Of a DNA stretch of 64,000 bases, positions 1,729-62,902 are shown piece after piece. The notes under the pieces were generated by a model. It had not been told where the DNA came from and did not search any database. It saw only the letters and a program-made list of their open reading frames with translations. Position numbers and translations under genes: made by a program. The stretch comes from Eledone cirrhosa (taxonomy: Eukaryota): positions 53,692,001-53,756,000 of the forward strand of contig OZ024751.1 in the NCBI GenBank assembly GCA_964016885.1, in the 5' to 3' direction. Position 1 is the first letter of the stretch. Each line of letters starts with the position of its first letter.

Positions 1729-3922
1729 AAAATAACAGATTAAAGTTTAAGCAAAGAATCGCTGCTTTCACCCTTATCGGGATCTTCTGAAACTAACAAA
1801 GTCAATCTGTAAACGCAGAAGTGGATATTTCAAAAAACGTTGCAACCGGAGGAAGACAGTAATAGGAGCGGTGAAAAACAATTACGCGCAAAGACAGAAC
1901 CACGTTTATGGTATAAAAGAGGTCGTAGACCAATGTTCTCTTATGATACGCTTAATTACATAAGTAAGCATTCCAACCATCCTGCCAGCATAACCAAGAA
2001 CCTGGTAAGAAACGTTTCGTTGAGGCTTTCCCGTCTTTCCACCAACGAGCGTATTTTCAACGACCATTCCACTTATTACAATGAAGCTCTTGCTCGAAGT
2101 GGATTTGTCGATAAGGTAGCATATACAGAGTATGAAAATAGACCTAGAAGAAATAGGTCCCGTCGCATTTGTTGGTATAACCCACCATATAATATGGAGG
2201 TGGCCACACCATTAGCTAAGATCTTTCTTTCCCTTATTACGAAGCATTTTCCCCCTACACATAAATATAGTAAAATTTTTAATAGTAATACTATTAAAAT
2301 TTCTTACTCTACGACTCCTAACCTTGCACATAACATCACAGCTTCAAATTTAGCTAAACTACCTAGCCGTAGGAACACGTGCAACCCTGTAGGTAGTACT
2401 AACTGTAATTGTAGGAATCGGGTTGATTGCCCCTATCCGGGAAATGCCTCTCTAGTAACATTGTCTACAAATGTAAGGTTGTAACACCCACGTCCCGTAG
2501 GGCCTACATCGGGTTAACCGCCAATAGATTCAAGCAGCGTCTTTACACGCATACCGATTTTTTTCGATACCCTCTAAGAAGGAATATGACGTCACTTTCA
2601 GCTTATATCTGGAGTCTAAAAGACAACCACACCCAATATAAGTTACACTGGGAGATCCTAGCTAGGGCTAGATCGTATAACGGAAATAAAAGACCATGTG
2701 ACCTCTGCGCCGCTGAGGCCCTGGAAATACTCTACGCCACGGACCACATCTTAAACAAAAAATCTGAGGCAATTTCGGCTTGTAAACATAAATTGCACAA
2801 AACTTTCCTGTATTACAGCCCCACGTTATACCCTAACGGATAGTACGATCTATACGTGGATATTTTACGTCTTGATGTGGGAGCTAAGTATATGTTTTGT
2901 TTATACCATTACTTATTTGCATAGGTAAGTATATATTACTCGTATGTTTCGTGAAGGTACGTATACCTTCTCGTACGTATATTTGATTGTTTATGTTATG
3001 GCGTATAATTTTTTTATTTTTTTTTATTCTGGTACATATGGTTTGGCTATGTGTATACGGGAGTTTTGCGTCTGTGTGAGTATGCAGGTTCGTACGTATG
3101 TAGGGTGTGTGTATATGTGTACTTCATGTTTTGGTTGACTTACGTCTCCGAACATTCGTGTATTTACATGTAGGTATGTGCGCTTGTTATATACGTATTT
3201 ATTTATTTATATACGTTTATATATTTATTTATTTATTTGTATACACACACACATATTTATATGTGCGTGGTTTTGTATACCTATGGTAAGGGTTTTGCGT
3301 ATGCTTGTGTATGTACGTATTTGTTTGCGTGTATGTATTTATTTGTTTCTATTACTTCTGTATTGTATTTATTTACTTTGTTCTTAACTCTGTAGCGGAG
3401 ATTCATTCGGTCTCCTAGTTAGAATTTTAGTCTACGACTTCTGCTATACCATTTACGCGGTTTTGTCTTTGCGTGCTATTGTTCTCTACGCTCCACATAT
3501 GACGTATTATCTTCGTTTTTTTCGTTCATTGCCAGAGAACGTCTCTATGAACCACCTAAGAGAACATTAGTCTACGACCTCTTTTATACCATAAACGTGG
3601 TTCTATCTTTGCGCGTAATTGCTTTTCACCGCTCCTATTAATGACGTATCTTATTCGTTTTTTCCCGTTCTTTGCCAGCGAACGTTTCCACGAACCAAAG
3701 TATCGTCTTCCTGTCTTCCTCCGGTTGCAACGTTTTTTGAAATATCCACTTCTGCGTTTACAGATTGACTTTGTTAGTTTCAGAAGATCCCGATAAGGGT
3801 GAAAGCAGCGATTCTTTGCTTAAACTTTAATCTGTTATTTTACGGTTCTTATATATTTGATATATATTTATCCTTATCGAGCCCTCTTTGGATTTTAGTC
3901 TTGAAATTTATTATTATTACTA
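1729..3922 (+). mobile_element. 5'-truncated Penelope-like element (Naiad-like) with inverted terminal copy
   Basis: 1729-1930 is the reverse complement of 3570-3842, with an internal deletion. The coding remnant between them has PLE motifs, and both ends abut (TA)n. Confidence 0.85.
1945..2843 (+). pseudogene. PLE RT-thumb plus GIY-YIG endonuclease remnant, frameshifted near 2430
   Basis: Motifs SNHP..I.KN, WYNPPY, linker CNCRNRVDCP, IVYKC...YIGLT...FKQR...H, and CDLC...E...LNKKSE...CKH. ORFs 1840-2484 and 2427-2843 are two frames of one protein. Confidence 0.88.
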
Positions 3923-4115
3923 TATATATATATATATATAACATCATTGGTTAACCATACAGTTATGTACATATATACAATAATCATTGTTATCAAAATG
4001 TGTAGGGCCCCAACAGACTCAAAATATTTCTTTACACTTCTTAAAGTTATCAAACATTCATCTTGTATCATCTAAGACAATGTCCCAGAATTATATGACT
4101 TCCACTGCATTTATA

Positions 4116-4290
4116 AATAATTGTTTCTACTTTTGGCACAAGACCAGCAATTACCCAGTGCATTACTGGTACTTTATTTTATCGACCCCATAAGGATGAA
4201 AGGCAAAGTTAACCTCGGCGGTATTTGAAGTCAGCCCATAAAGGGTCGTAACTCTTTGCTGCAAAGCATGACGTCCGACCCTCTACCGAT
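4116..4290 (-). mobile_element. tRNA-derived SINE, family 2 (Nin/Deu-type central domain)
   Basis: The minus strand contains CCGAGGTTAACTTTGCCTTTCATCCTTATGGGGTCGATAAAATAAAGTACCAG and ends GTAGAAACAATTA. More than 12 copies occur in the window. Confidence 0.85.
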
Positions 4291-61186: not shown

Positions 61187-62266
61187 CATAAAACATGTCT
61201 ATAGAATCACAAGATAAAATATATACTATTTCCTCTCCCAATTAGCATAATTAACTATATAAAAAATCGAATAGACCAGGCTATAAGAATGAGGCTTCTA
61301 TGAAGAAATCCCCGACAAATAACCAACACTAGCCCTTCGCGTCGGCCGTAGCGGAATATTTATCGAATATTTCGACAGCGTAATCGCCTAGATACAGTCA
61401 ACTAAACAGAATTAGGTGTAAAATAAACTAGGAGAAAATAGAATACATTTAAATACCTCTACCATGGTTTCATCCGTATTTTGAGTCTTCCAATAATTAT
61501 GTAATAATTATATAAACTCGAGCACCGGATTCATCAGGAAGTTCGCTCTTATCTAGACACTAAATTTTCCAAAGTGATCGCGCCAAGAATTCATTCAAAA
61601 TGGCTAAAAATCGAGACGTAGTCGCGGTCAGGTTGGAAGGGGTGTGGTAGTTGCTTACGACTGGTAGCATTTTTGCTAGAAAGCACAGCACAATACAGCC
61701 AAATTTGTATCTCAACCTAATGGGAGATTATTACATATAAAAGTTTACATATATATATACATATATATACATATACGTGTTTTGCAACGTATATGAGCGA
61801 ACTTCCTGATGAATCCGGTGCTCGAGTTTATATAATTATTACATAATTATTGGAAGAATCAAAATACGGATGAAACCATGGTAGAGGTATTTAAATGTAT
61901 TCTATTTTCTCCTAGTTTATTTTACACCTAATTCTGTTTAGTTGACTGTATCTAGGCGATTACGCTGTCGAAATATTCGATAAATATTCCGCTACGGCCG
62001 ACGCGAAGGGCTAGTGTTGGTTATTTGTCGGGGATTTCTTCATAGAAGCCTCATTCTTATAGCCTGGTCTATTCGATTTTTTTATATAGTTAATTATGCT
62101 AATTGGGAGAGGAAATAGTATATATTTTATCGTGTGATTCTATAGACATGTTTTATGATATATAGCTCTGATTATTTAATTTATTAATTTTTCATTGAGC
62201 CACAAAGTGACCAGTTGCAAAACACGTATATGTATATATATGTATATATATATGTAAACTTTTATA
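61187..62266 (+). mobile_element. Fold-back element with ~360-bp inverted arms
   Basis: 61187-61548 is the reverse complement of 61795-62157. A second inverted pair is 61736-61788 / 62214-62266. Confidence 0.82.
61801..61888 (+). ncRNA. Type I hammerhead ribozyme motif
   Basis: acttc-CTGATGA-atccg...cggat-GAAA-ccatgg-TA-gaggt. Mirror copy at about 61455-61542 on the minus strand. Confidence 0.82.
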
Positions 62267-62502
62267 TATATATACATATATATATACATATATATATAAA
62301 TATATATACATATATACATATATATATATACATATATATACATATATATACATATATATATACATATATATACATATATATATACATATATATATATATA
62401 TACATATATATACATATATATATACATATATATACATATATATATATATATATATACATATATATACATATATATACATATATATACATATATATACATA
62501 TA

Positions 62503-62902
62503 CGATATTATTAAATGGAAACTATATTTATTTTTATAAATATAAACAGTTTTACAAATAAGCTTTGACGTACCCTATTAAAATGCAACCATTGTATTTG
62601 GAAGTCATCCGGAAGTCATTTGGAAGTCATTTGGAAGACATCCAAAAACAATGGTTGCATTTTAATAGGGTACGTCAAAGCTTATTTGTAAAACTGTTAT
62701 ATATTGTATTTTGTCTGATGAAGGCATACCATAATTTAATGTGGTATCCCTGAAATATGTATAATGAAATAAATATGGTTTTATAAATATAGTTTCCATT
62801 TAATAATATCGTATATCTACTCCAAATACTTGTCGAGTGCTTTATATCAGTTATAAAAATATTTACTTGTTGTATCCCAACAATTTTAAATAGAACTTTT
62901 GC
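62503..62902 (+). mobile_element. Short fold-back PLE-terminal unit with hammerhead (62707-62771)
   Basis: 62545-62602 folds back on 62640-62698. HHR tattttgt-CTGATGA-aggcatacca...tggtatccct-GAAA-tatgta-TA-atgaaata. Same family as the units at 5.2-7.4 and 30.0 kb. Confidence 0.78.

Follow-up and report, generated by a model that had tools for sequence, protein, structure and literature searches.

The minimal hammerhead ribozymes of Penelope-like elements (PLEs) have been described as palindromic motifs, in part with a U3-A8 core, that occur as thousands of single copies and as opposite-strand pairs 100-700 bp apart (PMC4209133). PLE insertions have an inverted copy, a one-sided tail and (TA)n targets (PMC8557442) as well as palindromic junctions (PMC3846280), and for a PLE protein in vitro it has been found that both strands are cut and extended, that the RNA is used uncut and that the tail is set by two internal start sites (PMC11167929). 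The origin of the inverted ends is left open in PMC8557442 and PMC11167929. Non-LTR retrozymes of metazoa are non-coding tandem monomers with type I hammerheads (PMC7229834). We have analysed a 64-kb stretch of the Eledone cirrhosa genome (contig OZ024751.1, positions 53,692,001 to 53,756,000; hereafter the window) in which several families of PLE-derived fold-back units carry hammerhead motifs. The contig measures 53.9 Mb, with the window 140 kb from its end, and the genome 3.0 Gb. The window has a G+C content of 36.6%, and 28% of it was masked as simple or tandem repeats. Our main conclusion is that head-to-head PLE ends in (TA)n probably arise from two separate cDNA primings on one uncut, probably capped sense RNA.

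The anatomy of these units is largely known, both for the hammerheads and for the fold-back layout; what is added here is junction evidence for arms that were likely made separately, arm ends at the presumed first base of the RNA and a family without a protein-coding open reading frame (ORF). As in insertions of Hydra-clade and other endonuclease-positive PLEs (PMC8557442, PMC3846280), there is an inverted 5'-truncated copy, a tail at one end, a (TA)n target, palindromic junctions, an initiator (Inr)-like TCACT in the pseudo-long terminal repeat (pLTR) and solo pLTRs, and the proteins share the RW[KR], DKT, CxCx5C, CxxC and CxH motifs and the absence of CCHH. The present elements differ from those by longer tails (~90-120 nt compared to 30-40 nt), by a length of more than 4 kb instead of less than 3 kb, and by copy numbers that reach tens of thousands. 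Compared with the closest published hammerheads, stem III is an 8-10-nt palindrome rather than absent, stem II can have inserts of 50-90 nt, and one family has a fixed U4-to-A exchange together with a stable stem III. A survey of Octopus repeats lists PLEs and leaves ribozymes unmentioned in its accessible main text (PMC13282606), and our literature search, mostly outside subscription journals, found nothing on octopus Penelope elements with hammerheads.

Families A, B and D have full-length or near full-length coding copies elsewhere in the genome (sampled loci L386 for A, L322 for B, L314 and L315 for D). All four copies are built as pLTR, hammerhead, tail, ORF, 3' untranslated region (UTR) and pLTR, with a single ORF for reverse transcriptase (RT) plus a GIY-YIG endonuclease at its C-terminal end, between the pLTRs, and a few frameshifts. 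Pfam called neither RT nor GIY-YIG on these Hydra-like frames (best GIY-YIG E value 0.65), and the domains were assigned by motifs and tblastn links. The proteins contain RWR, DKT (DKA in D), CNCRxxxxC and CxxCxxE; CxH was read in A and B, and the CCHH pattern was found in none of the three families. The Hydra clade is marked by RWK-like, DKT, CxCx5C, CxxC and CxH motifs, no CCHH, and (TA)n targets (PMC8557442), and by these motif tests A, B and D are assigned to the endonuclease-positive PLEs of this clade. The Penelope origin suspected in a first-pass annotation of the window is thus borne out, with (TA)n-inserted PLE ends and coding parents for A, B and D. That annotation had left open whether the units are very short PLE insertion products or non-autonomous fold-back retroelements. 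The former holds for A (3781/30368), B (5288/7300, 30046, 62707, 42479/45118) and D (46208/48091), because coding copies exist elsewhere and the breakpoints vary: instead of a fixed, inherited hairpin without coding parent we found coding parents, variable junctions and locus-private variants. The latter does not apply to A, B and D and holds for the ORF-less family E, whose propagating unit would be linear or circular and not a hairpin.

The evidence for two primings comes from both ends of the arms, which were mapped by alignment to linear reference copies. Two alternative 3' ends occur in each family, a short end and an extended end ~90-120 nt further out; the extension, or tail, corresponds to the stretch from the pLTR to the ORF start in the full-length copies L322, L314, L315 and L386. 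Head-to-head insertions combine one short and one tailed arm, as found in 79 of 83 rows of family B, 20 of 22 of family A and 11 of 12 of family D. The family B exceptions are two short/short rows, one tail/tail and one intermediate; four of the 83 rows belong to one complex locus, and the twelfth family D pair is a full-length copy that was scored at its inner pLTR. For family E the same rule was read by eye in 24 of 28 cases; four were unclear and none was symmetric. Which arm reaches further towards the 5' side is apparently free: among the B rows it was the tailed arm in 12, the short-ended arm in 28, and 39 were about equal or unresolved. Since either arm can be the longer one, a single self-copying cDNA is ruled against, for in that case the tailed arm would always be longer. 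As a separate observation, a small stem-loop (TTGTTG/CAACAA and variants of it) is kept in the family B tails of different subfamilies (e.g. 62805-62901) and could be bound by the RT protein.

The inner ends are variable and pile up at one point. About 35 of 84 family B arms end within ~12 nt of CACTATCC, a site conserved across subfamilies and located 65-85 nt upstream of the hammerhead; a full-length family B copy begins at +8 of it. In matches to one B1 23-mer the upstream C was kept 703 times and changed 109 times. Of those with the C, 30 of 30 inspected continue for 7 to 1,500 nt, whereas 25 of 30 inspected without it stop exactly at the A of CACTATCC. The base before this A was G in 41 of 100 listed matches; two bases downstream the figure was 8 of 82 (Fisher p = 1.6e-6). 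For family A there are 2,606 matches without the upstream T of TTAGTTT, with G in its place in 53 of 100 listed, counted by eye; of 30 inspected loci, 28 end precisely at the A, 20 of these with G, and at 64 loci both arms carry the extra G, separated by a single unpaired base (A or T in 48 of 50 listed). In the window, the left arm of the B1 mini fold-back at 30009..30285 has its 5' end ~9 nt, and the right arm of the B1 unit at 62503..62901 begins ~7 nt, inside the presumed transcription start. An untemplated 5' G may reflect the cap. Such a G is frequent in full-length LINE-1 insertions (PMC12934576), and an Inr-like TCACT has been noted in rotifer pLTRs (PMC3846280). We infer that the initiator-like bases, the A of CACTATCC and the A of TTAGTTT, are RNA 5' ends, in which case the junctions would locate the transcription starts of two families. 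No paper on an extra G or on twin priming in PLEs was found in the literature search, again mostly outside subscription journals. A splice acceptor at the CACTATCC hot spot was considered and rejected, there being no conserved AG. In B2 subfamilies the sequence ATTTGCAT, which we take to be octamer-like, is kept ~55 nt upstream of the presumed start (7173-7182; also L015, L036 and L049). In family D, the pLTR core is preceded upstream by TATAAAAG.

What can be read directly from these sequences is the pair of fixed outer ends, one per arm, the variable inner ends, the parents of A, B and D, and the inner-end pile-up with its G. It is likely that the element's enzyme cuts both DNA strands at a (TA)n target, that both cut strands prime separate cDNAs on one sense RNA at sites ~90 nt apart, and that the two cDNAs would then be joined head to head. 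The initiator-like base would be the transcription start inside the pLTR. Priming near the 5' end of the RNA would lead to run-off at a fixed point and so to the recurrent mini hairpins of 300-450 bp, and longer arms would result from priming in the 3' pLTR. The hammerhead, situated between the start and the priming sites, would be carried along intact and is predicted to need a second sense copy, in tandem pLTRs or on another RNA, in order to cut. The arms do traverse its cleavage site intact, and no sign of cut templates was seen, with 2 of ~42 family B partner arms ending within 5 nt of that site. Family E would be a non-coding tandem or circular RNA that likely uses the same PLE enzyme. 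Much of this scheme has a counterpart in the in vitro reaction of Poseidon PAc (PMC11167929), where both strands are cut and extended, two internal starts define the tail, uncut RNA is the main substrate and targets are AT-rich. That study leaves the later steps open and, in its accessible text, neither links the two starts to two arms nor describes a run-off at the RNA 5' end. The one-tail rule, the observation that either arm may be the longer and the G added to the two arms lead to predictions that can be examined in this in vitro system. A more comprehensive proposal, on which we are evenly divided, reads the junctions as records of twin target-primed reverse transcription, in which the two ends of the double-strand break prime at offset sites of a single sense RNA that is capped. 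Either cDNA may extend through the cap, and no antisense template takes part in their head-to-head joining. In this proposal, the ORF-less 655-nt hammerhead RNA is spread by the same enzyme, and in the most abundant family the variant with U4-to-A and a stable stem III starts at the first base of the transcript.

Four other explanations were weighed. The first is compatible with two primings on sense RNA and concerns the template: solo pLTRs starting at +1 would keep an internal promoter and both priming sites and might, like a short interspersed nuclear element (SINE), be the main source of new short insertions, many stubs then being derived from other stubs. We regard this as possible though doubtful. 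An internal promoter is known from Penelope of Drosophila virilis (PMC2377424), the locus-private variants imply many distinct templates, and family E is an ORF-less unit that amplifies in this genome; nevertheless, no stub-only clade came to light, arms of the same subfamily extend upstream into UTR and ORF (703 versus 109), and the 5' pLTR of a full-length RNA already accounts for the stubs. The second explanation is a single priming, with the second arm copied from the first after fold-back of the cDNA at a short palindrome or after self-priming of an antisense RNA. Self-priming on an antisense template is the published reading of such junctions (PMC3846280), many of the present junctions are perfect or near palindromes, and private variants do occur on both arms. 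Our junction data favour two primings on sense RNA instead: the short-ended arm often extends further 5' and the tailed arm sometimes consists of the tail only, so that the second arm has sequence missing from the first, and the extra G sits at the sense 5' end; at 64 loci the two arms both have it, separated by a single unpaired base. A single priming therefore appears improbable.

The third explanation treats the ORF-less fold-backs as non-autonomous elements resembling miniature inverted-repeat transposable elements (MITEs), transcribed and reinserted as whole hairpins. Non-autonomous PLE derivatives have been published (PMC8557442; 10.64898/2026.07.22.740005), identical centres recur at 15 loci (one exact B1 hairpin centre) and at 64 loci (one A junction), and 12 of 21 pattern-matched B pairs are spaced 111-202. 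In the eight indel-free hairpins among the 15, six variants are found on both arms, each private to one locus, and seven on one arm; variants of this kind are shared by the arms and private to the locus, not arm-specific and inherited. Many subfamilies have mini hairpins, each with a junction of its own at the same homologous site, coding copies of the same subfamilies exist, and transcription from the presumed start heads outwards and would not carry the junction. We attribute the recurrence to a fixed RNA end and short palindromes rather than to descent from one hairpin, and consider MITE-like hairpins more improbable still than a single priming. Assembly or long-read artefacts, or DNA rearrangement after insertion, are very unlikely: complex PLE insertions are hard to assemble (PMC8557442), but the arms differ by 1-10%, a SINE-like insert is confined to one arm, and neither the one-tail rule nor the G at +1 could be produced in this way.

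Several points weigh against two primings on a capped sense RNA. The start site, the cap and expression are deduced from DNA alone. The hairpins of the window itself have no extra G, and at ~7 of 12 B junctions and 3 of 20 A junctions inspected the opposite arm offers an alternative reading of the G; the G count of family A has no position control. Loci picked by pattern enrich for ends at the pattern edge, and most loci come from one contig. Arm reach gives no call for subfamilies without a reference. Private variants shared by both arms could also stem from later conversion between the arms. Partial tandems, in which the pLTR reaches upstream of the start (L314, L386), are unexplained by the model. 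As to the ribozyme stems treated below, the covariation counts take in related sequences, and part of stem II belonged to the search pattern.

The hammerheads were identified with a descriptor that comprised stem I (at least 4 bp), core, stem II, GAAA, stem III and UH, with a limit of 90 nt for the stem II region. Its strict form gave 8 loci in the window, 7 of them with a fully self-complementary stem III; in 100 local dinucleotide shuffles there were 0.29 loci and 0.02 self-complementary ones per window. With a slightly looser form, 10 hammerheads were obtained whose stem III is self-complementary (7300, 23130, 45119, 48091, 61801 and 62707 and, on the minus strand, 5288, 42478, 46208 and 61455) and none in 10 shuffles. 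The motif at 57222 (stem I of 5 bp, stem II of 8 bp, stem III ACACGUGU, then UC) falls outside the set because its stem II segment measures 91 nt. With it included, 11 window motifs have a type I core (C3/U3-UGANG8/A8-A, GAAA, UH, stems I-III), and the scan against shuffles confirms the well-formed type I motifs of the first-pass annotation. The CTGANGA core ascribed to all of them needs correction, as 23130 and 48091/46208 carry UUGANAA (U3-A8) and not CUGANGA; the self-complementary stem III stands for the 10 motifs of the looser form and fails for 30046, whose stem III AUAGAUAU is not self-complementary. The core as written is absent from 3781 (U4 to A), 9976 (extra A), 36640, 23494, 8676, 5046 and 49310, all formerly classed as degenerate. 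This is apt for 5046 and 49310, broken copies from families that otherwise have complete motifs. At 9976 the extra A is family-wide, 8676 is a half motif severed by the fold-back, 23494 (minus strand) has no stem I adjoining the core, and 36640 (minus strand) has a variant core without homologue in the sampled loci. The motif at 3781 is no decayed copy, for its core CAGAAGA, seen in 95 of the first 100 of 23,447 matches, is normal for the family; its stem III is long and non-palindromic. An Rfam scan of the window had no hammerhead model among the 150 of 214 matches listed, which are microRNA models on microsatellites.

Conservation of the stems was examined in family B with 123 distinct segments, selected by anchors outside stem II. 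In this stem, 781 of 861 cells were paired, compared to 674 (maximum 702) over 1000 partner shuffles, and compensatory exchanges (A-U/G-C and U-A/C-G) are present, as one would ask of a ribozyme stem. A C.C mismatch at position 4 of stem II is kept in 100 of the 123 segments, which suggests a tertiary or protein contact. Stem III is self-complementary in 133 of 146 family B strings, and in 7 of 7 palindromic cases its predicted hairpin energy is 0.0, with a predicted self-duplex of -2.2 to -12.9 kcal/mol. Palindromes without hairpin stability are consistent with action as a dimer; stem III of family A differs, with a predicted hairpin of -3.6. The minimal PLE hammerheads described so far either cleave poorly, dimers included (PMC4209133), or require a protein (PMC11167929). 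The fold-back pairs stand on opposite strands and so provide no dimer partner within one transcript. The long hairpin RNAs with a self-cleaving end envisaged at first are not supported by folding, since the motif of two symmetric units is predicted to pair over its full length with the antisense arm of the same unit; in 62503-62899, where the left arm is deleted, it is predicted to be free.

The motif of family A (3776-3830, 30363-30417; L176-L205) has CAGAAGA fixed in ~23,000 matches and a stem III of 5 bp. Its stem I is extended in the 3' copy, and the presumed transcription start coincides with the first base of stem I. By its sequence it may be a hammerhead variant that has gone unreported or one that has been silenced. 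Tolerated hammerhead variants include U10.1-U11.1 and an insertion after A6 (PMC3088659). No paper on a natural U4A core was found; the supplementary hammerhead file of PMC8557442, searched only in part, may list similar variants.

Family E stands apart. Its monomer of ~655 nt has a longest ORF of 66 codons, stop to stop, and 9 same-strand pairs at a spacing of 637-723 nt were present among 100 matches listed; copies include dimers, trimers and arms that exceed the unit length. Among 30 tail loci, the sequence goes on with the monomer that follows in 16 and ends in simple repeats in 14, and in none does it enter an ORF; the 5' ends are broadly spread. Family E thus consists of non-coding tandem monomers with one hammerhead each and fits a non-LTR retrozyme with the insertion footprint of a PLE. 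It resembles the metazoan retrozymes (PMC7229834; 10.64898/2026.07.22.740005) in its tandem non-coding monomers with one type I hammerhead each, in its dimers and trimers and in the proposed reliance on PLE enzymes. It differs in monomer length (~655 nt compared to 220-390 nt) and in that its link to PLEs is an insertion footprint, not homology; a partner enzyme was not found. Contigs of four runs from one study gave short repeat fragments over 61440-61900 and no piece that spans the junction. Family E may serve as a natural tandem substrate for dimer cleavage and for PLE-driven retrozyme mobility.

Exact-pattern matches in the genome numbered 23,447 for family A, 14,053 for B, 978 for D and 185 and 1,061 for two patterns of E, and the reversed patterns of these families gave 0 matches. 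Motif density per 100 kb was 15.6 in the window, 9.5 in 200 kb of flanking DNA and 3.5 in distant stretches, the last sampled as twenty 10-kb stretches at round-number positions (7 motifs, 0.4 expected). Independent insertions numbered 6 per 64 kb in the window and 6 per 200 kb in the flanks. The swarm noticed at first sight is therefore the densest end of a genome-wide background; a rough extrapolation from the sampled density would give ~100,000 such motifs in the genome. At least eight more hammerhead families occur in the 400 kb sampled (L286, L293, L299, L301, L302, L305, L270, L281, L282), among them a 310-nt tandem hammerhead pair in L286, which adjoins the window.

Table 1. Hammerhead-bearing and related units in the window (., no single strand).
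Position	Strand	Unit	Details	Basis
1728..3921	+	Family A head-to-head insertion	CAGAAGA hammerhead-like motif 3776-3830, 3' UTR, tail; short untailed inverted arm 1728-1943; RT-thumb/GIY-YIG remnant 1813-2843	self-BLAST, patterns, ORFs
5041..5075	+	Broken copy	38-nt deletion; family has complete minimal motif	
5149..7403	+	Family B2 head-to-head insertion	Inverted arm tailed, hammerhead 5288-5348 (-); other arm long, with hammerhead 7300-7360, endonuclease remnant 5791-6021 and later SINE-like insert 6833-7026, absent from other arm	
7421..10115	.	Family G inverted pair	Arms 7426-7741 / 9795-10109; variant core CUGAAAGA, stem III ACAAUUGU at 9976-10066	
8478..8737	.	Fold-back with half motif	GAAA, ACGUACGU, UA at 8676-8692; core gone at junction	
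23130..23217	+	Family F hammerhead	U3-A8 core, stem III ACUACGUAGU	
23494..23608	-	Core, stem II and palindromic stem III	No stem I beside core; hammerhead status uncertain	
30009..30285	.	Family B1 mini fold-back	Hammerhead 30046-30112 (-) on left arm; right arm is tail plus 15 nt	
30312..30535	.	Family A mini fold-back	Joined at core; tail on right arm only; motif 30363-30417	
36443..40169	-	PLE of another clade, not fold-back	Variant minimal motif near 36636-36673	
42436..45320	.	Family B3 head-to-head insertion	Left arm long, with hammerhead 42478-42544 (-) and endonuclease remnant 44249-44829 (-); right arm short, tailed, hammerhead 45119-45183	
46160..48281	.	Family D head-to-head insertion	3' UTR only, U3-A8; hammerheads 46208-46254 (-) and 48091-48137 (+); right arm tailed	
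49305..49362	+	Copy with GAAA short by one A	Within palindromic element; family has complete motif	
57222..57341	+	Family H hammerhead	91-nt stem II region, stem III ACACGUGU	
61187..62260	.	Family E head-to-head insertion	ORF-less ~655-nt tandem monomer; hammerheads 61455-61542 (-) and 61801-61888 (+); left arm extends back into preceding monomer's tail; right arm tailed	
62503..62901	+	Family B1 mini fold-back	Hammerhead 62707-62771; tailed right arm; left arm internally deleted	

Coding sequence is kept in 4 of 13 window units (Table 1). For the six small families (23130, 9976, 57222, 23494, 8676 and 49310/5046) no parent was traced in the sampled loci, and the fold-back at 8478..8737 has no homologue among these loci. 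The PLE at 36443-40169 has an uninterrupted RT and GIY-YIG frame of 887 codons (37499-40159), with GxKF, DKG and CCHH, which places it in a clade other than that of A, B and D. At the 3' end the ORF start recurs as a 62-nt direct repeat, and the element could be a recent copy. A further PLE-like remnant (58780-59944, plus strand) has RT-thumb and GIY-YIG-like text and is 93% like a copy in L242; no hammerhead was found adjoining it. Another TA-flanked repeat family (36324-36371, 40310-40431, 63135-63440), with inverted pairs in L065, L278 and L219, has a CTGACGA core at 63377 (minus strand), and a complete motif was not found there. Two long interspersed nuclear elements (LINEs) have endonuclease and RT frames: the one at 12271-15728 (minus strand) has an additional zf-RVT match, and the one at 52642-56825 (plus strand) has a near copy in L047 and L058. 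At 33023-33397 (plus strand), a match to AMP-binding_C (PF13193, E value 6.5e-18) points to a possible host acyl-CoA ligase exon or a retrocopy. An array of ~80 copies of a 19-bp unit (24393-25932) stands beside a short palindromic element (24201-24381), an arm of which recurs at 22771-22811.

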